NCBI GenBank assembly: GCA_016871615.1
Contig: VHCX01000006.1
Location: 5,171 to 69,170 of the forward strand
DNA: 64,000 bases
Reading direction: 5' to 3'
Source: Verrucomicrobiota bacterium
Lineage (GTDB): Bacteria > Verrucomicrobiota > Verrucomicrobiia > Limisphaerales > UBA9464
Shown: one piece after another, positions 17,626-47,759 of the stretch
How positions within the stretch are numbered: position 1 is the stretch's first letter
Layout of the letters: each line of letters begins with the position of its first letter
The notes under the pieces: generated by a model
What the model was told of the DNA's origin: nothing
What the model saw: only the letters and a program-made list of their open reading frames with translations
The model's database searches: none
Translations under genes and position numbers: made by a program

Positions 17626-17661
17626 CCCAAAAGGGGTCGGTCCTCACTTTTGACACAAGCC
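17626..17661 (+). repeat. Solo copy A of RAYT-flanking repeat
   Basis: CCCAAAAGGGGTCGGTCCTCACTTTTGACACAAGCC, near-identical to 46713-46745. Confidence 0.9.
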
Positions 17662-17750
17662 CCGGGCTCCGCGGACGCACCCCCGCCGGTTCCATGGTGC
17701 GGATCCTCCGGACCGACGGCGGCGGCGCATGCCCCCGGCCCCTCCCGGGA

Positions 17751-19334
17751 TCACCTCGTCTGATTCCGGAGGATGAGCACCGACGGGCCTTTCTCGCGCC
17801 AGAGTCCCTTGAGCTTGTGGGGCACCGGGGTGGGCATCTCGATGAGGGAGCCCAGCACGAGGTCGTCGTCGCCGTCGCCATCCAGGTCCCCGGCCTCGAG
17901 GGAGATCCAGCGTCCCGTGACGCCCTGCCGCAGGGTCTGGGCCTTGAAGGCCAGGTCCTTGCCGCCGGCGGGCGTCGTGTTCTCGAAGTGGAGGAAGCCC
18001 TCCTGCGGGGTGAGTTCGTAGTCGGGAAAGAAGGAGATGGCGGCGATGTCGAGGTCGCCGTCCCCGTCGAAGTCGCGGGCGATGGCCCGGTAGGCCCCGT
18101 GCAGGGGCGAGGACCAGGCCTGCTCCCAGCGGAGTCCGCCGCGGTTCCGCAGGATCCGCACGCCGTGGTAGGGCTTGTTGGGGGAGGTGTCGAAGTCGGC
18201 ATTATCACCGTTGGTGACGAGGATGTCCGGCAGGCCGTCGCGGTCGAAGTCGGCCAGCTCGAAGCCGGAGTGGCCCCAGCTCGGCGGCCTCTGCTGCACG
18301 AGTTGACGGCGGAACCGGCCGCCACCCTCGTTGAGGAAGAGCAGCAGCGATTCGCGCGCCTGCGCCTGCAGGACCATCAGGTCGGGTCGACCGTCGCCGT
18401 TGAAATCGCGGATCTCGGAGCGCAGACAACCGGGCTCGGGCAGGATGACCCGCTCGGTGAACCCGCCGTCGGCCCGCGCCTCCAGCCAGAGGAGCCGTCC
18501 AAGGTGGTTGCCGAAGGCGCAGACCACCAGGTCGGTGCGGCCGTCGCCGTTGAGGTCGCCGGCGGCCACGTGGGACACCCTCGGGAGTCCGGAGAGGATC
18601 GGCTCGGGGCGCAGGGGCGAGGCCTTGCGGTGGACACGGAACACCTGGCCCACCGGCTCCTCCCGCGGGAAGAAATGCCCGATGGCCCCGATGAACCAGT
18701 GGGCGTCGGCCGTGGCGAGGCTGACGGCGATGTTGCCCAGCGGCAGGGACCCGATCAGCCGGCCCGAGCCGTCGAGGACGTCGAGGCCCTGCCCGCCGGC
18801 GTCCGAGGCGAGGATCAGGCCCTCGGCCGGGTCGATGCGCACCATCGGGGTGCGCGGCGGGGAGCGCCGGTGCGGCGCCATCTCCGGCCGAAACCGCGGC
18901 AGGCCCACCTCGATGGAGGGCGGCTCGCCCGGATCGAGCCGTTCCGGCGCGGCGCGGGTGTAGTAGTCGGCGATCTGGTCGAACACCGCCGGCGGGATCA
19001 GCGGTCTGCCCGGGAAATAGCCGGCCGCCTGCAGGATGGGAAGGTCTCGGAAGTAGCCGTTGGTGGGCGCCGGATCGACCCCGGTCACGTAGCGCATCTT
19101 GGGCAGCAGCTCGCGGCTCCAGGTCCGGCGGTCGAGGTCGGACGGGCTCGGCAGCGCGTGGCAGAGCACGCAATGGATCGAAGCAGCCCGACGGCCCGGG
19201 TGGTCGGCGAGCGCGTCGGCCGTGGGCACCATGGGCGGCGAGAGATCACCCGGGCCGCCTCCGGCCAGGCACCGGACGAGCTGCAGGATCAACCCCAACG
19301 CGCCGACGGGCAGCACCCGGACCCCGGACGCCAC
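17751..19334 (-). CDS. FG-GAP/VCBS repeat protein with N-terminal CxxCH heme-binding motif
   Basis: CVLCH; repeats DLNGDGRTDL, DFNGDGRPDL, DFDRDGLPDI, DFDGDGDLDI, DLDGDGDDDL. Start uncertain. Confidence 0.75.
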   Translation of the reverse strand: MASGVRVLPVGALGLILQLVRCLAGGGPGDLSPPMVPTADALADHPGRRAASIHCVLCHALPSPSDLDRRTWSRELLPKMRYVTGVDPAPTNGYFRDLPILQAAGYFPGRPLIPPAVFDQIADYYTRAAPERLDPGEPPSIEVGLPRFRPEMAPHRRSPPRTPMVRIDPAEGLILASDAGGQGLDVLDGSGRLIGSLPLGNIAVSLATADAHWFIGAIGHFFPREEPVGQVFRVHRKASPLRPEPILSGLPRVSHVAAGDLNGDGRTDLVVCAFGNHLGRLLWLEARADGGFTERVILPEPGCLRSEIRDFNGDGRPDLMVLQAQARESLLLFLNEGGGRFRRQLVQQRPPSWGHSGFELADFDRDGLPDILVTNGDNADFDTSPNKPYHGVRILRNRGGLRWEQAWSSPLHGAYRAIARDFDGDGDLDIAAISFFPDYELTPQEGFLHFENTTPAGGKDLAFKAQTLRQGVTGRWISLEAGDLDGDGDDDLVLGSLIEMPTPVPHKLKGLWREKGPSVLILRNQTR

Positions 19335-19545
19335 GCCGTGGAGTCCTGGGCCACCGGATCGGGATGGAGACCGCAGGATCCTCAAGCGTCCCCAGGCTAA
19401 CCCCGAACCAGCCGCGATGGAAGGGGCCGAATCCCGGGCCGGCGGAATGCCGGCCTCTCGCATCGCTGGGGGAATTTTGCCGGTGCCGACGGAGCGGCTG
19501 AGGATGCCGGAGGGCCCTGCCAGCCAGCCCGACACCCCGGGGACC

Positions 19546-21039
19546 TCAGTGGGCCGCCTTGACCGGGGCGGCCGTCGCCGCCGGTCGGGCAAGGCCCGCC
19601 ACGGCCTGGTCGGCGAGCTTCACCAGTCCCTGCGGGAAGACCCCGAGCACCAGGATCCCGACCACGCAGGCCCCGAGCAGGATGCGCGTGGGCAGGGCCA
19701 CCGGGATGGTCGAGAGGTTGGCCGACTGGCCACCCCAGTAGATCGCCCGGATCACGCCGAAGTAGTAGTAGAGCGAGAGCACCACGCCGAAGACCGCCAC
19801 GGCGATCAACGCATAGAGCTCCGGGTGGCCCGGCGCGGCGGCGAGCACCCCCTGGATGAGCAGCACCTTGCCGAAGAATCCGGCCATCGGCGGGATGCCC
19901 GCCAGCGACACGATGGCCGTGGTCAGGCCGGCCGCCAGGAGGGGCGAGCGCTGGCCGAGGCCGGAGAGCCCGCCGATGTCGTCGCCCTCGACATGGTTGG
20001 CAAGCGCGCTGATCACGGCGAAGGCCGCCAGCACCGTGAAGGCGTAGCCGCCGAGGTAAATGAGCATGGCCGTCGGGCCGGCCGAGGTGCCGGTGTACGA
20101 CGACGCGACCAGCCCCAGCAGCAGGTAGCCGGCATTGGCGATGGACGAGTAGCCCATGAGGCGCTTGAGGTTGCGCTGCGGGATGGCACAAAGGCTACCG
20201 TAGAGGATCGTCGCGGCGGCCATGGCCACGAACAGGTGCTGCCACATGGCCGTGATCTGCGGGAGCGCCCCGACGAAGAGCCGGATCAGCAGGACGAAGC
20301 CGGCGGCCTTGGAGCCGATGGCCAGGAAGGCCGTCGCGGGCGCGGGCGAGCCCTGGTAGACGTCCGGCGCCCACATCTGGAGCGGCACGGCGGCGATCTT
20401 GAACCCGAGGCCGACGAGGATGAGCAGCAGGCCCACCAGGAAGACGGCCGAACCGGCGAGTTCCTTCTGCTTGGCGGCCAGGACGTTGAAGTTCGTGGAG
20501 TTGGCCATGCCGAAGACCAGGGCGATGCCGAAGACCATGAAGGCCGAGGACACGCCGCCCAGGATGAGGTACTTCACGCCGGCCTCCAGCGAGGCCAGGC
20601 GGGTCCGCTGGAAGCTGTTCAGCACATAGAAGGTGACCGTGACCAGCTCGAGGCTGACGAAGAGCAGCCCCAGGTCGTTGGCCGAGGCGGCGAAGAGCAT
20701 GCCCACCAGCGCGAAGACGGTGAGGGCGAAGAACTCGGAGAGCCCGGCCCCGAGCCTGGGGGCGAACTCGGACGCCATCAGGACCACCGCCAGCCCGGCC
20801 AGGAGGAAGAAGCCCTTGAAGTATCGGGCGAGGTCGTCGACCACGAACATGCCGGAGAAGGCCGAGCCCGACTGCGGGGCCAGCGATCCGATGGCGAAGG
20901 CCAGCAGGCAGCAGAGCGCGGCGGCCAGGCCCAGTCCAAGGGACCTGCGGACCGTGGGGGAGACCCAGAGGTCGGCCACGAGCACGACCAGACCCAGCAG
21001 GGCCGCCAGGAGTTCCAGGGTGATCAGCGAGTAATTCAT
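19546..21039 (-). CDS. nuoN: NADH-quinone oxidoreductase subunit N
   Basis: EAGVKYL, FKIAAVP..MWAPDVYQG, KRLMGYSSI, GFFGK. Confidence 0.95.
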   Translation of the reverse strand: MNYSLITLELLAALLGLVVLVADLWVSPTVRRSLGLGLAAALCCLLAFAIGSLAPQSGSAFSGMFVVDDLARYFKGFFLLAGLAVVLMASEFAPRLGAGLSEFFALTVFALVGMLFAASANDLGLLFVSLELVTVTFYVLNSFQRTRLASLEAGVKYLILGGVSSAFMVFGIALVFGMANSTNFNVLAAKQKELAGSAVFLVGLLLILVGLGFKIAAVPLQMWAPDVYQGSPAPATAFLAIGSKAAGFVLLIRLFVGALPQITAMWQHLFVAMAAATILYGSLCAIPQRNLKRLMGYSSIANAGYLLLGLVASSYTGTSAGPTAMLIYLGGYAFTVLAAFAVISALANHVEGDDIGGLSGLGQRSPLLAAGLTTAIVSLAGIPPMAGFFGKVLLIQGVLAAAPGHPELYALIAVAVFGVVLSLYYYFGVIRAIYWGGQSANLSTIPVALPTRILLGACVVGILVLGVFPQGLVKLADQAVAGLARPAATAAPVKAAH

Positions 21040-21064
21040 GGAGGGAAGGACGGGGCTGGACGGC

Positions 21065-22638
21065 TCAGTGTCTGGATTGGGCCGGTGTGCCCGGGGAGTG
21101 GGCGGAGGCGGCCGGGGCGGGAGCCTCGGATCCGGCCGGGGCGGCCGGGGACGACGCCCGATGGGCCGCGACCACGACCCTTGCCGCAGGTTCGATGCGG
21201 GTGGTCAGGAGGCCCGGGGCGACCCCGAAGAGCACCATCGCGGCCAGCAGCACCACGAAGGGCAGCCGGCGCCAGTACCCGGTGTCGGCGACGCGGGCGA
21301 ACTCGGGCCTCTCCGGCCCCTGCAGCACCGCGCGCAAGGCGCGGAGCATGGCCACGGCCCCGATGACCAGGCCGCTCCAGGCGGCGATGACCACCAGGAG
21401 GGGAAGCGCCTTCCAGGCACCGAAGAGGATGGTGGCCTCCCCGGCGAAATTGGCGAAGCCGGGCAGGCCACAGCCGGCCATGAAGCCCATCACCAGCGCC
21501 GTGCCGTAGAAGGGCATCCTGCGCAACAGGCCGCCCATGCGGGTCATGTCGAGGGTTCCGGTCTGGGTCTCGAGGTAGCCGCTGAGGGCGAAGCTCAGGG
21601 CCGCCAGGAGCGCGTGGGCCACCATGAGCAGGACGGTGCCGGTGACCCCGATGACCGTCAGGCTGGCGATGCCGAGGAAGGCGAAGCCCATGTGCGCGAG
21701 GCTCGAGTTGCCGATGAGCAGGTTCATGTCCTTCTGGCGGAGGGCCACCCAGGCGCAATGCAGCAGGTTGCCGATCGCCAGCACCGCCACCAGCGGCAGC
21801 CAGCGGCTGGCGCCCTCGGGCATCAGGGGCACCGCCACCCGGAGGATCGCATAGAGGCCGGCCTTCTTGAGGATGCCGGCGTGCATCATCGCCGTGGCCG
21901 TGGGGGCGGCGGCGTAGCCCAGCGGCGCCCAGGAGTGGAAGGGGAAGAGCCCGACCAGCACGGCGAAGCCGAACACCACCAGCGGGAAGATCCACACCTG
22001 CGCCGCCACCGGCAGAGGGTGGGCGGCCAGATGCCGCTGCAGCACGGTGACATCGAGGCTGTCGGCCCCGGCGGCGACATACAAGGCCACCAGGCCGACC
22101 AGCGCCGTGAGCGCGCCGAGCGTGAGATACAGGGTAATCTTGAAGGCGGCCCAGTTGCGGTCCTCGCCCCGTCCCCAGACGCCGATCATGATGAAGGTCG
22201 GCACCAGGGCCAGCTCGTTGAAGAAGTAGAAGAGCACCAGGTCGAGCGAGGCGAAGGCCCCCATCGCGCCGGAGATCATCAGCATGAGCAGCACGTAGAA
22301 GAGCTTCACATGGCGCTCGATGTTCCAGGACACCAGCACCGCCGCCAGGCCCACCAGGCCGGTGACGAGGATGAGCCCGATGTTCAGGCCGTCGGCCCCG
22401 ACGTGGTAGGCGAGCTTCATGGGCCCCACCGTCACCCAGGGCACCATCGACTCGAACTGCAGGCCGGCCTCGCCGGGGTGGAAGCGGGAGAAGAGGCCGA
22501 TGGCGGTCCAGGCCGTGAGGGCCGAGCCGACGATGGCCACCGCACGCAGCACGACCCGCAGGTTGCCGGGCACCAGCAGCAGCAGCAGGGCCGTGACGAC
22601 CGGGGTGAGGAGGACGGGGGTCAGGGAGTCCATGGCGG

Positions 22639-22642
<4 letters not shown>
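21065..22642 (-). CDS. nuoM: NADH-quinone oxidoreductase subunit M
   Basis: FYFFNELALVP, FPFHSWAP, GLPGFANFAGE; operon position. Confidence 0.93.
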
Positions 22643-24606
<1,964 letters not shown>

Positions 24607-24616
24607 GGGCAATCGG

Positions 24617-24922
24617 TCAGAGTTTCAGGGTGGTCAGGTCCTCCACATCCGCCGTCTGGCGCTTGCGGTACAACGCCACGAGGAGCGCCAGGCCCACGGC
24701 CACCTCGGCGGCCGCGACCGTGATGATGAAGAACACCATCACCTGGCCGTTGAGGTTGTTGTGGAACCGGGAGAAGGCCACGAGGGCGAGGTTGGCGGCG
24801 TTGAGCATGAGCTCGAGGCCCATGTAGACCACGAAGAGGTTGCGGCGCGCGACCACGCCAAGCAGGCCGAGGCTGAAGAGCAGCGCGCTGACGATCAGGT
24901 AGTGGTGGAGTCCGGGGATCAC
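24617..24922 (-). CDS. nuoK: NADH-quinone oxidoreductase subunit K
   Basis: [20 protein letters not shown]. Confidence 0.95.
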
Positions 24923-24967
24923 GGGAAGGGAGGCTGGAGGAGGGTTCGGCGGGCGGAGGGGAGGGGC

Positions 24968-25480
24968 CTAGCGGAGGTCCTTCTTGGTGATCAGGATGGC
25001 CCCGACCGTGGCGACCAGGAGAAGCAGCGACAGGATTTCGAAGGGCAGGATGTGCGACTCGAAGAGCAGCCGGCCCAGCGCCTTGGTCTCCCCCTCGGCG
25101 AGGCGACCGGCCGGCGCCGCGGCCGGCACGGTCTTCACCACCGCAGCCACGAGGGTGCCGGCGATGGCCAGCGCGGAGAGTCCGCCCAGGCCCACGGCCA
25201 CCTGGTTGAAGTGGCGGCGCTCATCCTCCTTGAGGTCGAGCAGCATGATGACGAAGAGGAAGACCACCATGACGGCGCCCGCGTAGACCAGGATCTGCAC
25301 GGCCGCCAGGAAGAAGGCATGCAGCAGCACGAACAGGCCGGCCATCGAGAGGATGGTCAACACCAGGAACATGGCGCTGGTGACCGGGCTGCGGCTCAGC
25401 GGGTTGAGCACGGTCAGGAAGCCAAAGAGCAGGGTCAGCCCGGCCAGAGCGTAGAACAGGAGGTCGGTGAACTGGGGCAT
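24968..25480 (-). CDS. nuoJ: NADH-quinone oxidoreductase subunit J
   Basis: QILVYAGAVMVVFLFVIMLL, LPFEILSLLLL. Confidence 0.95.
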   Translation of the reverse strand: MPQFTDLLFYALAGLTLLFGFLTVLNPLSRSPVTSAMFLVLTILSMAGLFVLLHAFFLAAVQILVYAGAVMVVFLFVIMLLDLKEDERRHFNQVAVGLGGLSALAIAGTLVAAVVKTVPAAAPAGRLAEGETKALGRLLFESHILPFEILSLLLLVATVGAILITKKDLR

Positions 25481-25522
25481 GTCGGGAAGGGCGGGTTCTC
25501 CGGTAAGGGCTCTGGGCGACGG

Positions 25523-26092
25523 CTATGGGGTTTCGACCGGGAAGCTCTCCTGGGCACGGGCCTCCTCGAGCTTGTGCTTCCACTTCTGGATGCCGGCGTG
25601 GGTGCCGCCCAGCGACAGGAGCTTCTCCTTGTTGAAGATCATCGATTCACGGTTCTCGCCCGTGATCGAGTAGTCCTTCTGCAGGAAGATGGCCTCCTCG
25701 GGGCAGACCTCCTGGCACATGCCGCAGAAGATGCACCGGAGCATGTTGATCTCGAACTCCCGGGGCATCTTCTCGGCGTTGGCCCGGTCGGCGGGCCGCC
25801 CCTCGGACCCAGGCGGGGTGATGCGGATGGCCTTGGGCGGGCACACGAACTCGCAGAGCTGGCAGCTCACGCACTTGGTGGCCCCGTCTTGGTCCTTCAC
25901 CAGGTAGGGCGCGCCGCGGTAGCCCTCGGGCACCACCCAGCGTTCCTCCGGGTACTGCATCGTGACGGCCTTGCCCTTGAAGACCGTGTCCGCGAAGTGC
26001 TTGGCCGTGACCTTGAGGCCGCCGAGGATGGCCGGCAGGTAGGTGCGCTCGTAGAAGGTCAGCGGGGCGCGATCAACGACTTTGGTGCTCAT
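25523..26092 (-). CDS. nuoI: NADH-quinone oxidoreductase subunit I
   Basis: TMQYPEE, CVSCQLCEFVCP, RCIFCGMCQEVCP. Confidence 0.95.
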   Translation of the reverse strand: MSTKVVDRAPLTFYERTYLPAILGGLKVTAKHFADTVFKGKAVTMQYPEERWVVPEGYRGAPYLVKDQDGATKCVSCQLCEFVCPPKAIRITPPGSEGRPADRANAEKMPREFEINMLRCIFCGMCQEVCPEEAIFLQKDYSITGENRESMIFNKEKLLSLGGTHAGIQKWKHKLEEARAQESFPVETP

Positions 26093-26106
26093 AGATGGGG
26101 GGCGGG

Positions 26107-27198
26107 TCAGTGGTTGAACAGGGCGACCACGACGGCGGTCACGACGATGTTGGCCAGGGCCAGCGGGATGAACCGGCGCCAGCCCAGGTCCATGAGCTGG
26201 TCGTAGCGGAAGCGCGGGAGCATCCAGCGCACCCAGATGAACACGACCATGAAGAAGGCCATCTTGGCGAGGAAGACGCCGATGTGCACCAGGCCCAGCA
26301 GGAGCGACCCGGCCGGCAGGTTCAGCGCATCGATGAACGGCAGCGTCCAGCCGCCGAGGAACAGCGTCACCATCATGGCCGCCGAGGCGATCATGTTGGC
26401 GTACTCGCCCAGGAAGAAGAGCGCGAACTTCATCGAGCTGTACTCGGTGTGGTAGCCGCCCACGAGCTCGGACTCGGACTCGGGCAGGTCGAAGGGCAGG
26501 CGGTTGGTCTCGGCGAAGGCGGCGATGAGGAAGATCACGAAGGCCAGGGGCTGCTTGAGGATCATCCAGCCGTGCTCGGCCTGGTAGCGGATGATCTCCG
26601 ACAGGTTGAGGCTCTCGGTGAGCAGGAAGATCGGCACCACGCTCATGCCCATGGCGATCTCGTAGGAGATCATCTGGGCGCTGGAGCGGATGCTGCCGAG
26701 GAAGGGGTACTTGGAGTTGGAACCGTAGCCCGCCAGCACGATGCCGTAGACGCCGAGGGAGACGATGCCGAAGGTGTAGAGGATACCTACGTTGAGGTCG
26801 GCGATGACCATCTTCTGGCCGCCCAGATTGGATCCGAAGGGGATGACCGCGATGGTCAGCAGCGCCGGGATGACGGTGATGGCCGGCGCCAGCCAGAAGT
26901 ACACCTTGCGCACGTAGCTCGGGGTGAAGTCCTCCTTGAGCAGGAACTTCAGGCCGTCAGCCGCCGGCTGGAAGATGCCCAGCTTCACGAGGAACGGCCC
27001 GATGACCGGCAGGTAGTCGACGAAGAACGGGGCCGTGCGGTTGGGACCGACGCGGTCCTGGATCCACGCCGAGACCTTGCGCTCGACGAGCACCGCGTAG
27101 GCGACGGCCGTCATCACCACGCCGAAGACCACGCCGATCTTCAGCGCGCTGAAGAGGATCATCTGCGCGGTCGGACTGAGGTAGTTGATCGCTTCCAT
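26107..27198 (-). CDS. nuoH: NADH-quinone oxidoreductase subunit H
   Basis: ERKVSAWIQDRVGPNR, AETNRLPFDLPESESELV, PRFRYDQLM. Confidence 0.96.
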   Translation of the reverse strand: MEAINYLSPTAQMILFSALKIGVVFGVVMTAVAYAVLVERKVSAWIQDRVGPNRTAPFFVDYLPVIGPFLVKLGIFQPAADGLKFLLKEDFTPSYVRKVYFWLAPAITVIPALLTIAVIPFGSNLGGQKMVIADLNVGILYTFGIVSLGVYGIVLAGYGSNSKYPFLGSIRSSAQMISYEIAMGMSVVPIFLLTESLNLSEIIRYQAEHGWMILKQPLAFVIFLIAAFAETNRLPFDLPESESELVGGYHTEYSSMKFALFFLGEYANMIASAAMMVTLFLGGWTLPFIDALNLPAGSLLLGLVHIGVFLAKMAFFMVVFIWVRWMLPRFRYDQLMDLGWRRFIPLALANIVVTAVVVALFNH

Positions 27199-27204
27199 GG
27201 TCGC

Positions 27205-28947
27205 TCAGAGTTGCACCGTGACGCCGGCGTCGCCGATCCTGGCCCACTCGACCCCGGCGAAGGCCGGTACCCCGGCGGCCATGCGGTTGAAGAGCCCCTC
27301 GATGCTGCGGGCCGGCTCCTCGCCGGTCACGGCCTGCACCAGTTCCTGCAGGAACTCCGACTCGGGCCGGGCGTCGCCCGGAGGCTCGACCGCCTTCTGG
27401 AAGCGCTGCAGGCGGCCCTTGACGTTGACGAAGGTGCCGCGTTTCTCGGCATGGGCCGCGCCGGGGAGCAGCAGGGTGGCCGCGGCCGTCGTGGCGTTGG
27501 GCAGGATGTCGCTGACGATCAGCGCGTCGAGCTTGGCCAGGAGTTCGGGCCCAAGGCCCTCGCGGGTGAGGTCCTCGCCGAAGACTACGAGGGTCCGGAT
27601 GCGACCCAGGGCGATGCCGTCGGCGATCTTCAGGAGGTTGAAGCCGAACTCCGTGAAGGCCATGCCGGTCAGGCGCACGCCGTTGCTGTTGGGGTTGCGG
27701 TCGGCGCTCACCAGCAGCCGGTCGGGATCGCCCTCGCGCGGCACCGAGTCGGTCAGGGCGCCGGTGTGGGTGGCGAGCTTCTTGAGCAGGAAGAGTTCCT
27801 CGTTGGTCTGACGGGCCGAAACCACGAAGGCCACGCCGCCCTGGGGAGCCCGCCGCAGGATGTCGGCGGCCGTCTCGAGGGCGGCATTCCAAGTGATGCG
27901 CTCGCGCGGGCCGCCAGAGGAGGTCCGCAGCACTTCCTTGAGCCGGTCGGCACGGCCGATCCATCGGTAGTTGAGCCGGCCGCTGTCGCACATCCACGGG
28001 CCGTTGACCGCGTCGTTGTCGCGCGGCTCGTAGCGGTGGATGACCCCCTCGCGGGATCCGATGGTGATGTTGCAGCCGGTGCCGCAGCTGGTGCAGAGGC
28101 TCTTGGTCTCCTTCAGGAACCAGACCCGCATCTTGAAGCGGAAATCCTTGGAGGTCAGCGCGCCCACCGGGCAGAGGTCCACGGTGTTGAGCGTGTAGTT
28201 GTTGTCGAACCTGCCCGGCTCGAAGGCGCCGATGGTGTTGTAGGAACCGCGGTTGACGATACCCAGGGCGTCGTCGCCGGCGATGTCGCGGGTGAAGCGG
28301 ATGCAGCGGGTGCAAAGGATGCAGCGCTCGTCGTCGAGCACGATGCGCGGCCCGAGGTCCACGGCCTTGGGCTTGTGCACCTTGGCCTCGACGAACTGGC
28401 TGCCGGCCTTGCCGTGCTGCACCGAGTACTCCTGCAGCTTGCACTCACCGGCCTGGTCGCAGATCGTGCAATCCAGCGGGTGGTTGATGAGCAACGACTC
28501 GAGCACCGACTCCCGCATCTGCTGGGTCGCCTTGGAATCGGCGTAAATCTCCATGCCCGGCGAGATGGGCGTGGCGCAGGCGATGGCCCCGCGCGCCGTG
28601 CCCGGCTCGTAGGGCAGCACCGACCGGGCGATCTTGGGCGTGCCGTCCTCGTTGAGCACCGGCTTTCGGTCCGGGCCGATCATGGGCGTGCCGAACTCCA
28701 CCAGGCACATGCGGCAGTTGCCCGCCACGGGAAGCTTGTCGTGGTAGCAGTAGTGCGGGATGTCCACGCCGGCGATCCTGGCCGCCTGGAGCATGGTCGT
28801 CGGGGCGGGCTTGCCCTGCCAGTCGGGCATGGTCTTGGGCACCTGCACGGTCTTGCCGTTGACCTTCACGGTCATGGTCTCGACCGGCGGGGCCGCCGGG
28901 GCGGGGGCGGGGGCCGGGGGCGTGGAGGGGGCAGCGGGGGCGGACAT
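27205..28947 (-). CDS. nuoG: NADH-quinone oxidoreductase subunit G (short form)
   Basis: HYCYH...GNCRMC, HPLDCTICDQAGEC, CILCTRC, DLCPVGAL, CTSCGTGC. Confidence 0.92.
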   Translation of the reverse strand: MSAPAAPSTPPAPAPAPAAPPVETMTVKVNGKTVQVPKTMPDWQGKPAPTTMLQAARIAGVDIPHYCYHDKLPVAGNCRMCLVEFGTPMIGPDRKPVLNEDGTPKIARSVLPYEPGTARGAIACATPISPGMEIYADSKATQQMRESVLESLLINHPLDCTICDQAGECKLQEYSVQHGKAGSQFVEAKVHKPKAVDLGPRIVLDDERCILCTRCIRFTRDIAGDDALGIVNRGSYNTIGAFEPGRFDNNYTLNTVDLCPVGALTSKDFRFKMRVWFLKETKSLCTSCGTGCNITIGSREGVIHRYEPRDNDAVNGPWMCDSGRLNYRWIGRADRLKEVLRTSSGGPRERITWNAALETAADILRRAPQGGVAFVVSARQTNEELFLLKKLATHTGALTDSVPREGDPDRLLVSADRNPNSNGVRLTGMAFTEFGFNLLKIADGIALGRIRTLVVFGEDLTREGLGPELLAKLDALIVSDILPNATTAAATLLLPGAAHAEKRGTFVNVKGRLQRFQKAVEPPGDARPESEFLQELVQAVTGEEPARSIEGLFNRMAAGVPAFAGVEWARIGDAGVTVQL

Positions 28948-28953
28948 CGGAGA

Positions 28954-30381
28954 TCAGTGGGTTGGAAGGCTTCCTGCCGCCGGGCGGACGGAGCCACGGG
29001 CGTTCGCGTGGGCCGCCTCGTCGGCCGCGCCCTGGGCCTCGAACTCGTCGCGGAACTTCTTCACGAAGCTCAGGACCGGCCAGGAGGCCGCCTCGCCGAA
29101 GGCGCAGATGGTGCGGCCCTGGATGTTCTGGGCGATGTGGGTGAGGTAGTCGGCGTCGGCCTTGCGTCCCTCGCCATGGCAGAGGCGGTGGGTCGCCTTC
29201 GCCAGCCACAGGGCACCCTCGCGGCACGGCGTGCACTGGCCGCAGCTCTCGTGGGCGTAGAACTCGGAAAGGTTGCCCAGCGTCTCGACCATGCTGCGCG
29301 AGTCGTCGAGCACGATGATGGCGCTCGAGCCCGACATGGTGCCGGCCTGCTGCAGGGAATCGAAGTCGTAGGGCAGGTCGAGCAGCGGCACGTCGACCTT
29401 GGTCATCTGACCGTCGGCCCCCTTGTGGTTGAGTTTGAAGACCTCGCCGGCCTTCAGGACCTTCGAGGACGAACCACCGGGGATGATCGCCTTGAGCGAC
29501 CGGCCCGCCTTGAGCCCGCCGCCGAAGTTCTGGTCGAAGATCAGCTCGCCCAGCGTGACCCGGCCGACCTGAATCTCGTAGTAGCCGGGCCTCCGCACGT
29601 CGCCGCTGAGGCTCACGATCCGGGTGCCGGTGTTGTTGGGCGTGCCCAGCTTGGCGTACTCGGCCGGACCCATGAGCACGATGTGCTTCACGTGGCACAG
29701 GGTCTCGACGTTGTTGACGATCGTCGGGCACATGTAGAGCCCGAGGACGGCCGGGAAGTACGGGGGCTTGATGCGCGGGTAGGCCCGCTTGCCCTCGAGG
29801 GACTCGATGAGTCCGGTCTCCTCGCCGCAGATGTAGGCGCCCGCGCCGCGGTGCACGTGGATCTCCAGGTCGTAGCCGGTGCCCAGGATGTTCTTGCCGA
29901 GGAAGCCGGCCGCACGGGCCTCCTTGAGCGCCTGGTTCAGCAGCTTGGCCCCGTGCGGCATCTCGCCCCGGATGTAGATGTAGGCCAGCTTCACGTCGTT
30001 GGCCCAGCAGGAGAGGATCATCCCCTCGATGAGCTGGTGCGGATCCTTGTGAAGGATCTGGCGGTCCTTGAACGTGCCGGGCTCGGACTCGTCGGCGTTG
30101 CAGATGAGGTAGATGGGCTTGCCGCTGCGGCGGTCCACGAAGCTCCACTTCAGGCCGGCCGAGAAGCCAGCGCCGCCGCGACCGCGCAATCCCGAGGCCT
30201 TGACGTCCTCGCGCAGCGCCTCCTGCGGGCTAAGCTTCTTGCCGTCGGGCAGCTCGCGGGGCGGCATGGCCAGCGCCCGCTTCAGGGCCTCATAGCCGCC
30301 ATGGCGCTGATAGCACCCGATGTCCGGGGTGTAGCCCGGCTCGTCGAGGTTTTTGAGGATCAGTTTGAAGGGTTCGGGCAT
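28954..30381 (-). CDS. nuoF: NADH-quinone oxidoreductase subunit F
   Basis: GLRGRGGAGF, NADESEPGTFKD, GAGAYICGEET, SCGQCTPC. Start MPEPF at 30381 after AAGGAAAG. Confidence 0.95.
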   Translation of the reverse strand: MPEPFKLILKNLDEPGYTPDIGCYQRHGGYEALKRALAMPPRELPDGKKLSPQEALREDVKASGLRGRGGAGFSAGLKWSFVDRRSGKPIYLICNADESEPGTFKDRQILHKDPHQLIEGMILSCWANDVKLAYIYIRGEMPHGAKLLNQALKEARAAGFLGKNILGTGYDLEIHVHRGAGAYICGEETGLIESLEGKRAYPRIKPPYFPAVLGLYMCPTIVNNVETLCHVKHIVLMGPAEYAKLGTPNNTGTRIVSLSGDVRRPGYYEIQVGRVTLGELIFDQNFGGGLKAGRSLKAIIPGGSSSKVLKAGEVFKLNHKGADGQMTKVDVPLLDLPYDFDSLQQAGTMSGSSAIIVLDDSRSMVETLGNLSEFYAHESCGQCTPCREGALWLAKATHRLCHGEGRKADADYLTHIAQNIQGRTICAFGEAASWPVLSFVKKFRDEFEAQGAADEAAHANARGSVRPAAGSLPTH

Positions 30382-30389
30382 AGCTTTCC

Positions 30390-30417
30390 TTGACTCGGCG
30401 TCAGTTCCCAATAAGAT
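30390..30417 (+). promoter_or_regulatory. Sigma70-like promoter for tRNA-Gln
   Basis: TTGACT-N16-TAAGAT, 18 nt upstream of the tRNA. Confidence 0.6.
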
Positions 30418-30435
30418 CGTGACTTCAGTTCCGGC

Positions 30436-30509
30436 TGCCCGATGGTGTAATGGTAGCACAACAGTCTCTGAATCTGTTTGTCATGGTTCGAATCCATGTC
30501 GGGCAACCA
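30436..30509 (+). tRNA. tRNA-Gln (anticodon CTG)
   Basis: TGCCCGA/TCGGGCA acceptor stem, D-arm GGTGTAATGGTAGCAC, loop CT-CTG-AA, T-arm CATGGTTCGAATCCATG, encoded CCA. Confidence 0.93.
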
Positions 30510-30536
30510 CTCCCCCGGACCGACTTTCCTCTGCTG

Positions 30537-30564
30537 AGCCCGACTGCCTGCGATCGGGTTTTTT
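30537..30564 (+). terminator. Rho-independent terminator after tRNA
   Basis: AGCCCGA...TCGGGTT stem followed by a T run. Confidence 0.65.
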
Positions 30565-30731
30565 CGATCTGAGTTTGTCCGGTCTGATAATCTCCGATCC
30601 GCTTCCCTGCGATCGAAGTCCCACCGGACGAGACTCCCACGGCCGACCCGGGCCGGGACCGCAACGCCACACCTGGGCCCGGGGCCCCCGCGCGGACGAT
30701 GGAATGGTGGACCGTGGCGCTCATGTCTGCC

Positions 30732-31223
30732 TCAGGCGGCCTGCCCGTTCTTGAGGATGGCCTCGGCCTCGGCCGCGCCCACCTGGTGGTGCAGGTCCCC
30801 GTTGACGAGCACCACGGGAGCCGTGCCGCAGCTGGCCAGGCACTCCACGAACTCCACCGTGAACCTGCCGTCGGGGGTGGTCTGCGGGGCATGGGCATGG
30901 GCATCGAGGCCCAACCGGGTGCAGAACTGCTCCCGCAATTCGGCGCTGCCGGCCAGGGCGCAGCTGAGGGTGCGGCACACCTTGATCTGCGTCCGGCCCA
31001 GCGGTTCCTGACGGAACATGGGGTAGAAGGTCACCAGCTCCTGCACATTGATCGGCTGGAGCCCCAGCTTGCGGGCGGTCCACTCCACGGCCTCCTTCGA
31101 GATGTACCCGAAGTGCTCCTGCAGGGCGTGCAGGAACATGAGCGAGGCGCTCCGCTGGACCGGATAGTGGGTGGTGAGCTCGTCAAGCTCGGCTTCCAAA
31201 CTGGCGGGGACGGAAAAGCTCAT
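30732..31223 (-). CDS. nuoE: NADH-quinone oxidoreductase subunit E
   Basis: VTFYPMF, VCRTLSC, VECLASCGTAP. Start MSFSVP at 31223. Confidence 0.93.
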   Translation of the reverse strand: MSFSVPASLEAELDELTTHYPVQRSASLMFLHALQEHFGYISKEAVEWTARKLGLQPINVQELVTFYPMFRQEPLGRTQIKVCRTLSCALAGSAELREQFCTRLGLDAHAHAPQTTPDGRFTVEFVECLASCGTAPVVLVNGDLHHQVGAAEAEAILKNGQAA

Positions 31224-31246
31224 CGTTGAAGTCCGTTGAAGTCGGG

Positions 31247-32539
31247 TCATCGGTCGCACTCGCCCATCACGAAGTCGAAGGAACCCAGGATGGAGACCAC
31301 GTCGCTCATGAGGTGGCCCGGCAACACCGCCGGCAGGATGCCGAGGTTCACGAACGACGGGGCGCGGATCTTGAGGCGGTAGGGCGTGCCGCCCCCGCGG
31401 CTGTTGATGTAGAAACCCAGTTCGCCCTTGGGGTTCTCGGCCCCGAAGTAGACCTCGCCTGGCGGCGCGTTGACGCCCTGGGTGACGATCATGAACTGGT
31501 GGATGAGCTCCTCCATGCTGGTCAGCACCTTGTTCTTGGGCGGGAGCACCACCTTGCCGTCGGCCACGTTGACGGGCTCCTTGCCGGCGTTTTCGGGGCC
31601 GCCGGGCAGCCGGTCGAGGCACTGGCGGATGATGCGCACGCTCTGGCGCATCTCCTCCATGCGGACGAGGTACCGGTCGTAGGAGTCGCCCACCGAGCCG
31701 ACGGGAATGTCGAAGTCGAGGTCCTTGTAGACGAGGTACGGATGGGCCTTGCGGACATCGTAGTCGACGCCGCTGCCGCGCAGGTTGGGACCGGTCAGGC
31801 CGTAGTCGATGGCCATCTCGCGGGAGATCACGCCCACGTCGCGGGTGCGGTCCACGAAGATGCGGTTGCGGGTGAGCAGGGTCTCGGACTCGTCGAAATT
31901 GACCACCACCTCGTCGAGGAACCTGCGCACGGCGGCCGCCCAGCCGGGAGGGCAATCGCGGGTCATGCCGCCGATCCGGGTGTAGCTGGTGGTCAGGCGC
32001 GCCCCGGTGAGCGACTCGCACAGGTTGTAGATCTTCTCGCGCTCGGTGAAGGTGTGCAGGAACACCGTGAGGGCGCCGATGTCCATCGCGAAGGCGCCCA
32101 GGCCCAGCAGGTGGGCGGAGATGCGAGCCAGCTCGCAGCAGATCACCCGCAGGTACTGGCAGCGCGGGGGCAGCTGGGTGTCGATGCCCATGAGCCTCTC
32201 GACGGCCAGCGCGTAGGCCACATTGTTGGCCAGCGGCGCAAGGTAGTCCAACCGGTCCGTGTAGGGCACGAACTGGTTGTAGGTCATGTTCTCGGCGATC
32301 TTCTCGTCACCCCGGTGCAGATAGCCGACATCGGGCACAGCCTTGGTGATGGTCTCGCCGTCGAGCTCGATGACGATGCGCAGCACCCCGTGGGTCGAGG
32401 GGTGCGACGGGCCCATGTTGAGCACCAGCTTGTCGCCGTGGAGGTCGAGCAGGTCGTCGCCCGGGGACGCACCCCCGGCCTGCGCCGCCTGCACCGCCCG
32501 GGCCGCGGAGTCCTTGAATTCGATGGTCTGGGTCGCCAT
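31247..32539 (-). CDS. nuoD: NADH-quinone oxidoreductase subunit D
   Basis: NMGPSHPSTHGVLR, GYLHRG, DRLDY, ENPKGELG, MGECDR. Confidence 0.96.
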   Translation of the reverse strand: MATQTIEFKDSAARAVQAAQAGGASPGDDLLDLHGDKLVLNMGPSHPSTHGVLRIVIELDGETITKAVPDVGYLHRGDEKIAENMTYNQFVPYTDRLDYLAPLANNVAYALAVERLMGIDTQLPPRCQYLRVICCELARISAHLLGLGAFAMDIGALTVFLHTFTEREKIYNLCESLTGARLTTSYTRIGGMTRDCPPGWAAAVRRFLDEVVVNFDESETLLTRNRIFVDRTRDVGVISREMAIDYGLTGPNLRGSGVDYDVRKAHPYLVYKDLDFDIPVGSVGDSYDRYLVRMEEMRQSVRIIRQCLDRLPGGPENAGKEPVNVADGKVVLPPKNKVLTSMEELIHQFMIVTQGVNAPPGEVYFGAENPKGELGFYINSRGGGTPYRLKIRAPSFVNLGILPAVLPGHLMSDVVSILGSFDFVMGECDR

Positions 32540-32547
32540 GGCTGGTT

Positions 32548-33129
32548 CTATTCCTCGGGGGTGCGGACGCGCGGTTCACGGGCCGCGGAATCCCTGCCGC
32601 CGGGCAGGGTGACAAACGGCCCTCCCTCGAGCGGGGCCGGCCGGGTGAAGGCCGTGTCGGGAAGCACCGTGGGCTTGCCGGCCAGGGGGAAGTCCTTGCG
32701 CAGCGGGAAGTAGGGATAGCCCTCCCACATGAGGATGCGGCGGAGGTCGGGGTGGCCCGAGAAGACGATTCCCATCATGTCGTAGGCCTCGCGCTCGTGC
32801 CAGTCGGCCGTGCGCCAGACGCCCGAGACGGTCGGCACCTGCGAACGCTCCTCGCTGACGTGGGTCTTGAGGCGCAGATGGCACCCGTGGCCGATGCCGG
32901 AAAGCTCGTAGACCACCGTCCAGCGGGGGTCCTCGCCGTAGTTGTCGATGCTGCTCAGGTCGAGCAGCAGGTCGAAGCCCAGGGCCGCCTTGGCATGGGC
33001 GCACACCTCGGCGATGCGCTCCGCGTCGGCCACGGTCACGGTGACTTCGCCCCGGAATTCGAGGGGCCCGGAGATCAGGTCGCCAAACTTCTCACGAAGC
33101 TGGCCGGCGAGTTCGAGGGAGGTCGGCAC
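32548..33129 (-). CDS. nuoC: NADH-quinone oxidoreductase subunit C
   Basis: ADWHEREAYDMMGI.F.GHPDLRRIL, PLRKDFP. GTG start at 33129 inferred. Confidence 0.93.
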   Translation of the reverse strand: MPTSLELAGQLREKFGDLISGPLEFRGEVTVTVADAERIAEVCAHAKAALGFDLLLDLSSIDNYGEDPRWTVVYELSGIGHGCHLRLKTHVSEERSQVPTVSGVWRTADWHEREAYDMMGIVFSGHPDLRRILMWEGYPYFPLRKDFPLAGKPTVLPDTAFTRPAPLEGGPFVTLPGGRDSAAREPRVRTPEE

Positions 33130-33145
33130 GGGGAGAGCAATCGGG

Positions 33146-33754
33146 TCAGGGTTTCTCCGGGAGGACCTCGCCGTGGGCACCGAGCTCGAGACCCATGCGG
33201 CCGTACTTCTCCGGGGCGACATCGCGCTTGAGATCGCGGGTGATGGGCTCGTGCGACACCTTGTCCTGCAGGCGCATCAAGGCATCCAGCAGCGCCTCGG
33301 GCCGCGGGGGGCACCCCGCCACGTAGATGTCGACCGGCAGGATGTTGTCGACCCCCTGCAGCACCGCGTAGCTGCGGTACATGCCACCGGTAGAGGCGCA
33401 GGCCCCCATGGCGATCACCCACTTGGGCTCGGCCATCTGTTCGTAGATGCGCCGGACCGCCAGGGCCATCTTGTAGGTCACCGTGCCGGCCACGATCATG
33501 ACGTCGGACTGGCGCGGCGAAAACCGCATGACCTCGGAGCCGAAGCGGGAGATGTCGAAGCGGCTGGCACCCACGGCCATCAGCTCGATGCCGCAGCAGG
33601 CAAGACCCATCGGCATGGGCCAGAGGGAGTTCTTGCGGAACCAGTTCAGGGCCGCGTCCACCGTGGTGTGAACCACTTCACCCTCGATTTTCGTGTTGTA
33701 CCCGAACTCGGTGGTGGTCTTGCCGCCGATTACGGCCTGGGACGTTGCATCCAT
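33146..33754 (-). CDS. nuoB: NADH-quinone oxidoreductase subunit B
   Basis: [26 protein letters not shown]. Confidence 0.96.
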
Positions 33755-34637: not shown

Positions 34638-34690
34638 TTGACACCCGGACCGGTGTTTGGTTCTTTCTCCGTCCCCCTTTCCCGGGGGGA
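34638..34690 (+). promoter_or_regulatory. Probable rplU promoter (-35 TTGACA) and short leader hairpin
   Basis: TTGACA at 34638 with a poor -10; TCCCCC/GGGGGA hairpin at 34672-34690 just before the ATG. Confidence 0.4.
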
Positions 34691-34698
34691 TTGTTTTT

Positions 34699-35010: not shown

Positions 35011-35052
35011 CCCTGGCGCACCACCCAACGACAGGCATTTTTTTTCAGGCTT

Positions 35053-35310
35053 ATGGCTCACAAGAAAGGTCAGGGAAGTTCCCGCAACGGACGCGACAGC
35101 GTCAGCAAGCGCCTGGGCGTCAAGGCGTTCGGCTCCGAGTTCGTGACGGCGGGCAGCATCCTCGTCCGCCAGCGCGGTTCCAAGTTCTCGGCCGGCTCCC
35201 ACGTCGGCACCGGCCGCGACTGGACGCTCTTCGCGCTCAAGGACGGAACGGTGCAGTTCGACAAGGCCCGCTCCCGCGTCAGCATCGTGCCGGCGGCCGT
35301 CGCGGCCTGA
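35053..35310 (+). CDS. rpmA: 50S ribosomal protein L27
   Basis: [16 protein letters not shown]...KRLGVK. Confidence 0.97.
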
Positions 35311-35336
35311 CCGGTCCCCCCGCGGCTTATCGAATC

Positions 35337-35427
35337 TTTGGGCGTTCTGGATCCTTGGGCGTTCTCGGCCCTCGGGCCGTTCAAGGGGTTGGCCGTTCAA
35401 CGGGGTTTGGAACGCTCAAGGGGCGTT
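35337..35427. repeat. Degenerate ~17-bp-period repeat in rpmA-obg spacer
   Basis: GGGCGTTCT x2, GGCCGTTCAA(C)GGGG x2, GGAACGCTCAAGGGG. Confidence 0.5.
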
Positions 35428-35695
35428 TCATGGATGGCTACGGACCGTTCACGACTCCCTGGATCCGTGCCGGAACTCGTCCGAAGATCCGCTCCCGGAT
35501 CCGTACCGCCCTCCACGGCACGCACCGACGCGGTCCCCAACGATGTGAACCACGGCCGGGACGGGACCGACCGCGGCTCCCCGGACTCGGTCAGTCTCCA
35601 AGGCGAGGCCTGCAGGCCTCGCCTTGGTCTTGTCGGCCTCCCCGGGTGCCGACGGGAACCTCGCTTTCCGGATCGGTTCTGTCATTTTCCAGGTC

Positions 35696-36919: not shown

Positions 36920-36985
36920 GCCTGCCGGGGCCCGCCGGATTGGGTCTTGGTAAGCCCCGGGTCGTGGCGTACAACGCTTTCCGCC

Positions 36986-37738
36986 ATGCCCCGACTCGTC
37001 TTCGACATCGAAACCTCGGCCGTCGGACTGGAGACCTTCGACGAGGCCCAGCAGGAGTACCTGTTCCGCGAGGCCGAGCGCCAGCCGACCGAGGAGGACA
37101 AGGCCCGCAAACGCGCCGAGATCTCGCAGCAGTTCAGCCTCTGGCCGTTCACGGCGCAGGTCGTGTGCATCGCCATGATCAACGCCGATTCCGGCAAGGG
37201 GCAGGTGCTCTACCAGTCCGACGACTACGACGAGGAATCCCTCAAGGCGGGCGAGGCGACCGAGGACTCCGCCGCCGCCGGCGCGGGCATCGAGTTCGCC
37301 CCGCAGGTCGACGAGGTGGAGCTGCTCACGGCCTTCTGGGACGTGGCCAAGCGCTACGACGGCATCGTCACCTTCAATGGCCGAGGCTTCGACGTGCCCT
37401 TCCTGTACCTCCGCTCGGCCCTGCTCAACGTGCCCATCACCCGCAAGGATTGGCTGGGCTACCGCTACCAGACCGAGCCGCACTGCGACCTGGCCGAACA
37501 GTTCACCTTCTACAGCGTGAGCGGACGCGACGGCGCGGCGCGGAAGTTCAACCTCGACTTCTACTGCAAGGCCTTCGGCATCCCCTCGCCCAAGGCCATG
37601 GGGGTCACGGGCATGGACGTCGGCACGCTGCTGGCCGAGGGCCGGCACCGGGAGATCGCCGAGTACTGCCTGCGCGACGTGGCGGCCACGGTGGAGCTGC
37701 ACAAGGTCTGGGAGGCGCGGCTCAAGGGCATCAAGTGA
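36986..37738 (+). CDS. Stand-alone 3'-5' exonuclease (PolB-exo / RNase H-like, DEDDy)
   Basis: VFDIET, TFNGRGFDVPFL, HCDL, YCLRDV. Confidence 0.8.
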   Translation: MPRLVFDIETSAVGLETFDEAQQEYLFREAERQPTEEDKARKRAEISQQFSLWPFTAQVVCIAMINADSGKGQVLYQSDDYDEESLKAGEATEDSAAAGAGIEFAPQVDEVELLTAFWDVAKRYDGIVTFNGRGFDVPFLYLRSALLNVPITRKDWLGYRYQTEPHCDLAEQFTFYSVSGRDGAARKFNLDFYCKAFGIPSPKAMGVTGMDVGTLLAEGRHREIAEYCLRDVAATVELHKVWEARLKGIK

Positions 37739-37831
37739 TCCGGACGTGGCAGGGCTCGAGCCGATGGTCCGAACCCCGGGCGAAGGCCCGCGTGTTTTGA
37801 CTTCGACGGCCTCCCCCATACCCTCCGCCGC

Positions 37832-39151
37832 ATGCATATCGTCCGCGTTTCGGATGCCGACCACGCCGCCCGGCTCGACCAGGCGGCGGCCGCTTCGTCC
37901 CTGTTCGACCCCGTCATCGAGGAACGGACGCGCGCCATCCTCGAGGCCGTGCGCACCCGGGGCGACGAGGCCCTGCTGGAGTTCACCGAGCGCTTCGACA
38001 AGGCGAGGCTGACCGCCGGGCAGATCCCGGTGACCCAGGCCGAGCGGATGCAGGCCTCGCTCCTGGCCGGCCCGGGGCTGCGGGCCGCCGCCGCCGATGC
38101 CACCCGCAACATCGCCGCCTTCTCCCGGCGGTCGCGACGCCGCGACTGGTCGGCCACCAACTCGCATGGCGCCCGGGTGGGCGAGGTCTTCCAGCCCTTC
38201 CAGCGGGTCGGCATCTACATCCCCGGCGGCACGGCGCCGCTGGTCTCCACCGCGCTCATGACCATCACTCTGGCCAAGGTCGCGGGCTGCCCCGAGATCG
38301 TGGTCTGCACGCCGTGTGGCGCCGACGGGACGATCAATCCCGCACTGCTCTTCGCGGCCAACTTGGCCGGCGCCACGGAGATCCACCGCGTCGGCGGGTC
38401 GCAGGCCATCGCGGCCATGGTGCACGGCACCGCCACCATCCGGCCGGTGCACAAGGTCTTCGGCCCTGGCAACGCCTACGTCGTGGCCGCCAAGCGGCTG
38501 CTCTTCGGGCACGTCTCGGTCGACCTGCTGCCCGGGCCCAGCGAGACGCTGGTGGTGGCCGACGACTCGGCCGACCCGCGCTTCATCGCGGCGGACCTGC
38601 TGGCCCAGGCGGAGCATGGTTCCGGCCATGAGCGCGTGTGGATGGTCACCCCGTCGGCGCGTCAACTGAAGGCCGTGGAGAAGGAGATCGCCCGCCAGTT
38701 GCCCGCCCTCGGCCGACGGGACTTCATCCAGAAGGTGCTCGACGCGAACACCTGGCTCATCCAGGTCCGGGACCTGGAGGCCGCCGTGGCACTGGTCAAC
38801 CGGCTGGCCCCCGAGCACTGCGAGATCATGACGCGGAACCCCCGGGCGCTGGTGCCGAAGATCCACGCCGCCGGCGCCATCTTCCTCGGCCAGGGCTCGC
38901 CGACGGTCCTGGGCGACTACATCGCCGGACCCAGCCACGTGCTGCCCACGGGCGGGGCCGGCCGCAGCTTCGCCGGCCTCACCGTCGACCAGTTCCAGCG
39001 GCGCACCAGCGTCGTCGAGTACACCAGGCCCGCGCTGCGCAAGGCGCTCCGGGGGGTGGCCACCTTCGCCGGCCTCGAGGGTCTCGACGGCCATGGACGC
39101 TCGGCGGCCATCCGGCTCGAGGAGCCGGCGGCGGGCACCCGGGCGCGTTGA
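37832..39151 (+). CDS. hisD: Histidinol dehydrogenase
   Basis: GIYIPGG, GPGNAYV, PGPSE, DLLAQAEH, APEH, GPSHVLPT. Confidence 0.96.
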   Translation: MHIVRVSDADHAARLDQAAAASSLFDPVIEERTRAILEAVRTRGDEALLEFTERFDKARLTAGQIPVTQAERMQASLLAGPGLRAAAADATRNIAAFSRRSRRRDWSATNSHGARVGEVFQPFQRVGIYIPGGTAPLVSTALMTITLAKVAGCPEIVVCTPCGADGTINPALLFAANLAGATEIHRVGGSQAIAAMVHGTATIRPVHKVFGPGNAYVVAAKRLLFGHVSVDLLPGPSETLVVADDSADPRFIAADLLAQAEHGSGHERVWMVTPSARQLKAVEKEIARQLPALGRRDFIQKVLDANTWLIQVRDLEAAVALVNRLAPEHCEIMTRNPRALVPKIHAAGAIFLGQGSPTVLGDYIAGPSHVLPTGGAGRSFAGLTVDQFQRRTSVVEYTRPALRKALRGVATFAGLEGLDGHGRSAAIRLEEPAAGTRAR

Positions 39152-39186
39152 GTCACCCGGGAGTCGGGCCTGACCAGGGTGGGGGT

Positions 39187-39224
39187 GGCTTGTGTCAATA
39201 GTGAGGACAGACCCTTTTGGGATC
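39187..39224 (-). repeat. Solo copy B of RAYT-flanking repeat
   Basis: Reverse complement reads GATCCCAAAAGGGTCTGTCCTCACTATTGACACAAGCC. Confidence 0.9.
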
Positions 39225-47757: not shown

Positions 47758-47759
47758 GA

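Follow-up and report, generated by a model that had tools for sequence, protein, structure and literature searches.

Solo repeats in a Verrucomicrobiota genome belong to the terminal inverted repeat family of a Y1 HUH transposase and are likely re-worked at one end

Two short, nearly identical repeats (copies A and B) face each other across about 21.6 kb of a Verrucomicrobiota genome, which raises the question of whether they bound a unit or are separate members of a larger family. The stretch analysed (the window, 64,000 nt, G000:C6:5171-69170) comes from assembly GCA_016871615.1 (hereafter G000; 3.83 Mb, 69% GC, 95.6% complete), DNA of which is present in lake and freshwater metagenome runs. 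Two further copies, C and D, flank a transposase gene in the same window. An initial annotation had described four near-identical copies facing in this way, and all were found, with positions off by a few bases. Copy A is solo and of the CTTT variant (28-bp core 17631-17658, + strand, one mismatch to C), and copy B is also solo (28-bp core 39190-39217, − strand, two mismatches to C). Copy C lies at the 3′ end of the transposase gene (46713-46745, a 33-bp perfect arm with core 46716-46743, + strand) and copy D at its 5′ end (47725-47757, core 47727-47754, − strand). The arms of A and B (17627-17661 and 39187-39221) are 89% complementary over 35 nt and those of C and D 100% complementary over 33 nt, with matches in 0/100 shuffled controls for the four copies. 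We conclude that the pairing of A and B is due to chance and that both are old, independent members of a family of terminal inverted repeats (TIRs). The pair itself is unremarkable and the class of element has already been described; what deserves attention is the polar behaviour of the repeat junctions. The end of the repeat carrying GGGG is termed the outer end and the opposite end the inner end.

The genome-wide family that the initial annotation predicted from four copies was borne out. Scanning G000 with the 28-mer of copy C gave 67 matches with up to six mismatches (25 exact, 23 with one), and three shuffled genomes gave none with up to seven. One decayed copy with six mismatches (C12:66049) was left out and 66 were analysed. 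These lie on 32 contigs, with 31 solo, 16 in eight facing doublets, 12 in head-to-head palindromes, five in tandem and two around the transposase. Doublet spacers are 42-150 nt long, four of the eight falling between 72 and 79 nt. None of the 66 copies is inside a called gene; the 2953 genes of G000 were called with our own gene finder, and the gene starts reported below rest on these calls. The repeat is non-palindromic and its monomer does not fold (minimum free energy −0.6 and −0.4 kcal/mol, z about +0.8). TTGACA is invariant across copies, and a GTAG foot was found neither in the 28-bp core nor in the column profile of the flanks. Among the 67 copies the outer motif is GGGGTCGG in 57 and GGGGTCAG-type in 9; the A form of this motif, a one-base variant, is common elsewhere in the order. 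A degenerate second repeat start directly follows 10 of 54 non-palindrome copies, compared with 0-5 at other offsets. Moreover, sharing of flank sequence between non-orthologous copies is commoner on the inner side (17 of 1431 pairs) than on the outer (3 of 1431). As a measure of replication-strand bias, 16 of 22 scorable copies are on the C-rich strand (p=0.052), the copies being non-independent and the leading strand not established.

The gene between C and D (46749-47699, − strand) encodes a TIRYT, a Y1 HUH transposase with a C-terminal helix-turn-helix (HTH) resembling DnaA domain IV, in which the catalytic signatures are H60-F-H62 and Y121 within YVHLNP. It matches Pfam Y1_Tnp (E 2.4e-12) and carries the NHFH, YVHLNP and SS signatures of TnpA-Y1 subclass 2.1; in an alignment of 34 sequences H60/F61/H62 are nearly invariant and Y121 is invariant. 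An alignment-based AlphaFold2 model (predicted local distance difference test score 87; the single-sequence model was poor at 43.6) matched the fold of Escherichia coli TnpA-REP (4er8; Z 16.5, root-mean-square deviation 2.3, 158 aligned). The C-terminal tail matched DnaA domain IV with middling scores (Z 6.3-7.0, root-mean-square deviation 3.2-4.0, 71-81 aligned). Bac_DnaA_C was matched in 8 of the 34 homologues and not in the transposase itself, for which the profile match to DnaA had an E value of 0.042. The closest named relatives are from Verrucomicrobiota metagenome-assembled genomes (MAGs), and inverted repeats flank 66 of 80 homologous transposase loci. Because C and D flank a Y1 HUH transposase with a DnaA-domain-IV-like tail, C, transposase and D together are a TIRtron with a dispersed TIR family, a described class (PMC3733652). 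The tie between family and HUH enzyme claimed in the initial annotation thus holds, with 66 copies in G000 and high copy numbers in two relatives, G005 and G010, whose transposases are 86-89% identical. Its label of a class like repetitive extragenic palindromic (REP) sequences, spread by the enzyme, stands for an HUH-linked family but not for REPs in the strict sense, as the repeat has neither fold nor GTAG tag and is a TIR.

The two ends of the repeat differ in how they meet genes. In G000, a stop codon lies within 10 nt of the outer end, or is supplied by the repeat, in 19 of 22 cases, compared with 0 of 12 at inner ends (Fisher 8e-7; palindromes excluded, with inner ends counted in solo and tandem copies alone). 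Under uniform placement 0.83 such stop codons would be expected at the outer end where 12 of 14 were observed. Start codons are also nearer to outer than to inner ends (Mann-Whitney U, p=9e-5; p=2e-5 when restricted to solo and tandem copies). With a second way of locating stops, outer against inner counts were 19/23 vs 1/9 in G000 and 7/7 vs 0/7 in G005. In ten distant genomes, where 55 copies were examined and G000 served to train the codon model, the counts were 9/17 vs 1/11 (p=0.04). The TGA of the repeat ends five called genes and a TAA variant ends another. Among them are rsmA, lpxD and an scpA homologue, and LpxD, RsmA and ScpA end in repeat-encoded residues. Where a gene starts on the outer side, the repeat is typically 40-60 nt from the called start, just past motifs conserved in repeat-free relatives. 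The stop codons are faced on the same strand as the repeat and the promoters on the opposite strand. Some 8 nt separate the outer end of A from a motif kept in relatives upstream of a cysN-like gene, probably its promoter. The outer end of B lies at a similar distance (about 8 nt) from a putative −35 box, the conserved motif CTTGT, and 39 nt from the first ATG of an M48 peptidase gene. As a separate observation, an AAA ATPase gene elsewhere in the genome (G000:C160:1333-2363, L167) ends mid-domain where it meets the outer end of a doublet, the junction itself forming the stop codon.

The outer junctions also differ in position between species. At lpxD, G005 keeps an outgroup-like tail and stop codon, with a decayed TIR 32 nt further out (p=0.003); in G000 those 32 bp are missing and the protein ends inside an intact TIR. 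One doublet is 23, 9 and 3 nt from the same stop codon in G014, G000 and G005, respectively. At the scpA locus of G005 and G014, the reading frame takes in a decayed TIR, with the offset differing by 4 nt. In distant genomes the first hexamer of the TIR is repeated within 26 nt upstream of 15 of 76 copies, compared with 2, 1 and 0 in control windows, and the junction-spanning repeats there are tandem duplications of 3-15 flank bases together with 6-10 or more TIR bases. By synteny, the transposase gene lies between C and D in the opposite orientation to that in G005 and G010, and G005 has lost its second TIR.

Taken together, these comparisons point to A and B as independent, long-inherited TIR copies of a family that was likely spread, and has likely been kept re-worked one end at a time, by the TIRYT; we give this reading a probability of roughly 0.6. 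Cleavage by HUH enzymes yields a 5′ phosphotyrosine and a 3′ OH, and TnpA-REP is described as cutting 5′ or 3′ of its repeat and re-joining it (PMC8266576). Because the two TIRs of a TIRtron offer the same end, one on each strand, either can react by itself. The DnaA-IV-like tail would bind the repeat, perhaps at its inner TTGACACA half, and the HUH domain would nick a single strand at the GGGG end or just within it and join it to a nearby position in the flank. Joining further out would delete flank DNA and the reciprocal event would leave short duplications, and where two TIRs face each other about 1 kb apart the gene between them could flip. Deletions would accumulate until they met something the host needs, such as a stop codon, a conserved protein core, a promoter or a terminator; under this proposal the outer end abuts such features on either strand because deletions would halt there. 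No host function would be needed for the solo copies. We favour, at the same strength as the reading itself, a scheme in which one-ended joining produced the solo copies and the inner flanks carried with them, local re-joining produced the deletions and duplications, and selection halted the process at functional boundaries. Its extension to the whole class is more tentative and falls somewhat short of an even chance: group 1 RAYTs (TIRYTs) might be polar ratchets that re-nick and re-join their own outer ends, eroding host DNA down to stops and promoters and rewriting the C-termini of core proteins, with a DnaA-IV-like tail on a DnaA-box-like inner half in place of the hairpin specificity of REPs.

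Several observations weigh against this reading. The 7/7 outer stops of G005 are mostly at the same sites as those of G000, and by the second method polarity was weaker in G014 (4/8 outer vs 0/4 inner), G010 (4/7 vs 1/2) and G027 (2/4 vs 1/1) and absent in a small mixed set of genomes (0/3 vs 0/1). The inner end is the one nearer a called gene in 7 of 32 solo or tandem copies, B being one of these through a mis-called start. Few copies show junction duplications in G000 itself (1/63) or in the sister genomes (3/54). No clean pair of empty and filled sites was found, the empty sites being too diverged. Evidence for the flip between C and D comes from three assemblies, and the short-k contigs, interrupted at each TIR, speak neither for nor against it. 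Finally, G014 (88% complete) keeps 21 copies and its cognate transposase was not found.

The same polarity would also be expected if copies had been inserted precisely at gene ends and promoter edges, into exposed single-stranded DNA or a short A-rich target, and had not crept since. The bases before GGGG are indeed biased, the two immediately preceding it being AA in 29 of 55 distant copies, and GTAG REPs too abut 3′ ends and supply stop codons (PMC3733652). However, one targeting rule would have to serve both same-strand stops and opposite-strand promoters, and junction positions vary between species at the same site. Pairing of the outer flank with GGGGTC, in the manner of a guide or hairpin, was not borne out as a candidate rule (24/54 copies vs 19.4 shuffled, p=0.11, with shifted controls equally high). 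Precise targeting is, in our view, an unlikely explanation.

The history of the family bears on a second alternative. Pattern matches were found in 13 of 41 genomes, chiefly G000 (64), G005 (27), G014 (21), G010 (12) and G027 (11), and 16 of 22 other genomes of the genus have no match. Across the whole order, 36 of 301 genomes match, G000 with 62 matches and the others with at most 11, making G000 the largest expansion of the repeat among the 301 searched. The cognate transposase is 89% identical to that of G000 in G005 and 86% in G010; a neighbouring transposase fragment in G014 belongs to a second family, described below. The majority variant is CTTT in G014 (13/22) and CTAT in G000 (54/66), also at orthologous sites, a pattern consistent with overwriting. 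Copy A has an intact counterpart at its site in G005 and a decayed one in G014 (p=0.007), copy B is decayed at the same offset in both (p=0.003 each), and no trace of the repeat was found at A or at B in any of the further relatives tested (6 of 6 per site). Site B was found on two G005 contigs, one of them identical to G014 over the compared part, and for this reason G005 and G014 were not treated as independent. Decayed TIRs read by eye at C1:104581 in G005 and G014 were not significant.

Were the repeats maintained host operators, bound by the TIRYT or by DnaA to regulate or organise the adjoining loci, persistence would be expected, and repeat sites do persist in species whose flanks are only about 80-85% identical. 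The DnaA-domain-IV-like fold of the enzyme tail suits such a role, as does the presence of 11 of 32 solo or tandem copies in divergent regions. The inner 9-mer is two mismatches from the DnaA-box consensus quoted in PMC6006769 in 53 of 66 copies and one mismatch in 5 of 66, a likeness we treat as a lead only. Against operators, the same sites decay in sister genomes (A in G014, B in G005 and G014), most other genomes of the genus are without a match, the neighbouring genes are functionally unrelated, and the distribution of copies among intergenic classes roughly tracks the available length. This makes maintained operators an improbable account of the family.

Three further observations concern individual sites. 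The site orthologous to A is occupied in G010, G020 and G003 by other, unrelated repeat arrays of up to about 700 bp (L059, L060, L067). In G010 a TIR lies between a gene end and a tRNA gene (G010:C62, L148), where G000:C83 has only a few similar bases. In G014 (C28:1000-2700, L132) about 1.4 kb lies between two 129-bp doublets that are almost the same in sequence and have different outer flanks; this is a recent doublet duplication, sharply bounded on the outside, and possibly a small composite element.

We return to whether A and B form a unit, as the initial annotation had proposed in calling them an inverted pair and possible inversion or recombination sites. Relatives without the repeat have the same neighbouring genes at A and likewise at B, and in G001, G012, G014 and G021 a single contig carries the two sites, co-oriented and some 21 kb from each other. 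Facing neighbours more than 1.1 kb apart make up 2 of 13. The bases following the copies were as stated, GCC after A and B and CT after C and D. GCC follows only A and B among the 66 G000 copies, but the A of G005 is without it, a further GCC-followed copy exists in G005 and in metagenome-run contigs though not in the G000 assembly, and two random copies have the same next three bases with P=0.087. Metagenome-run contigs bridge B in 4/4 runs and A in 1/4, with abutting pieces in the other three; no A-B hybrid junction was present among the contig matches listed, contigs being prone to drop rare variants. A role of the repeats as rearrangement hotspots was also rejected: compared with the sampled G014 stretches, synteny breaks occurred at 6 of 17 repeat-bearing junctions and 88 of 239 others (Fisher p=1), some breaks in both groups being probe failures. 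Inversion is upheld for the close pair C and D, relative to G005 and G010, and not for A and B.

A second proposal was that the solo copies act as portable antisense promoters. The genes on either side of A, B and C are indeed co-directional, and TTGACA is oriented antisense to the upstream gene at its 3′ end, that gene being the transposase itself in the case of C. Across the family, however, solo and tandem copies between co-directional genes are of mixed orientation (12 sense, 7 antisense, p=0.36), TAnnnT was found 16-19 nt after TTGACA in 0 of 54 copies, and promoter scans at A and B gave no matches. In three species the TTGACA of D is followed 18 nt later by a conserved CA(A/G)CCT hexamer, which precedes the transposase ATG by 6-7 nt; on this basis that TTGACA could be the −35 box of the transposase gene's own promoter, possibly a weak, leaderless one. 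It is accordingly highly improbable that A and B bound a 21.6-kb segment which inverts or recombines, with solo copies as portable antisense promoters: the inverted C-D segment and the invariant TTGACA speak for it, and the gene order at A and B, shared with repeat-free relatives, the missing hybrid junctions and −10 boxes, the mixed orientation and the lack of a break excess speak against it.

The element can be compared with several described systems. Di Nocera, De Gregorio and Rocco (2013, PMC3733652) described TIRtrons and TIRYTs, with TIRs dispersed in some genomes as singles, dimers and groups. The present family resembles theirs in the tyrosine transposase gene between non-REP terminal inverted repeats, in a GGGG-T-C-R-G outer motif and in moderately abundant singles, dimers and groups; it differs in that most copies carry GGGGTCGG and not the consensus GGGGWSAS. 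The end polarity, the junction shifts and duplications and the gene flip are not described in the portions of that text consulted, nor was any account of end polarity or junction movement of TIRs found in open-access text, figures and supplements lying outside the search. Quentin et al. (2018, PMC6006769) equate subclass 2.1 with TIRYTs and RAYT group 1, among the largest RAYT groups (14.9% of strains). The NHFH, YVHLNP and SS motifs, a C-terminal DnaA_C-like HTH and no REP hairpins near the gene are common to our enzyme and subclass 2.1 (probably 2.1.2), or RAYT group 1 (PMC6006769; Bertels et al. 2017, PMC5581495), a placement made by motifs and by profile and fold matches. The DnaA-box comparison of Quentin et al. 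concerns the outer motif only, not the inner end considered above. With the REP/REPIN-RAYT systems of groups 2 and 3 (PMC3733652; REPORTH, 10.1101/2024.10.14.618302; PMC8266576) the family has in common the catalytic fold (4er8, Z 16.5), doublets with a preferred spacing (here 4/8 at 72-79 nt), vertical inheritance with apparent overwriting at orthologous sites and, as in REPs, closeness to 3′ ends with supplied stop codons. It differs from groups 2 and 3 in having no hairpin, no GTAG foot and an extra HTH domain. Moreover, its copies are frequent in divergent promoter regions, whereas REPs are reported mainly between co-directional and convergent genes. The open-access literature searched yielded only two papers naming TIRYTs, and no biochemical study of them.

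Other TIRtrons were seen alongside this one. G000 encodes a second TIRYT, 59% identical, with its own 14-copy TIR family (contigs C3, C14, C15, C17, C103, C106 and C124; L002, L003). Its repeats in G000 are mostly beside gene fragments and near contig ends, and they adjoin first-family copies in G005 and G014; this second family has a more recent look, like that of an insertion sequence. In another TIRtron (L225), about 87 bp of the 3′ inverted repeat duplicate the region upstream of the gene and its first codons, which would fit copying of the 5′ TIR together with its inner flank. A MAG labelled Opitutales, another order, has a near-identical TIR and a 79% identical transposase (L224), closer than most homologues of the same genus, which suggests horizontal transfer. 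Read by eye across L224-L303, transposases of about 220 residues mostly have short, partly self-complementary TIRs and those of about 310 residues longer, bipartite ones; the tail domain may be matched to the inner half of the TIR.

The surroundings of the copies in the window are as follows. On the outer side of A is a translational-GTPase-family gene (16255-17571, − strand; Pfam GTP_EFTU and GTP-eEF1A_C), the probable cysN-like gene mentioned above, and on its inner side an FG-GAP repeat gene (17751-19232, − strand) that is absent at this position from G005 and G014. The A-B interval contains an NADH dehydrogenase block (19546-33754, − strand; Pfam Proton_antipo_M and Oxidored_q6, two end genes scanned). 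On the inner side of B is hisD (37832-39151, + strand; Pfam Histidinol_dh) and on its outer side the M48 peptidase gene (39257-40054, start 39257 or 39263, + strand; Pfam Peptidase_M48). Beyond the outer end of D lies about 1.4 kb of lower-GC DNA (47758-49166; 57-61% over 48000-48999), absent here in G005 and G010, with a 169-residue open reading frame (ORF; 48050-48559) that has no Pfam match. Further along are GC-rich repeats with a 9-nt period (53490-54710) and coding repeats with a 117-nt period in two adjacent ORFs (58076-59409).

If the proposed re-working of outer ends is true, it would make concrete predictions for the cut site of the enzyme, for the target of its HTH domain and for effects on the host, namely trimmed intergenic DNA, replaced protein tails and a flipped gene.

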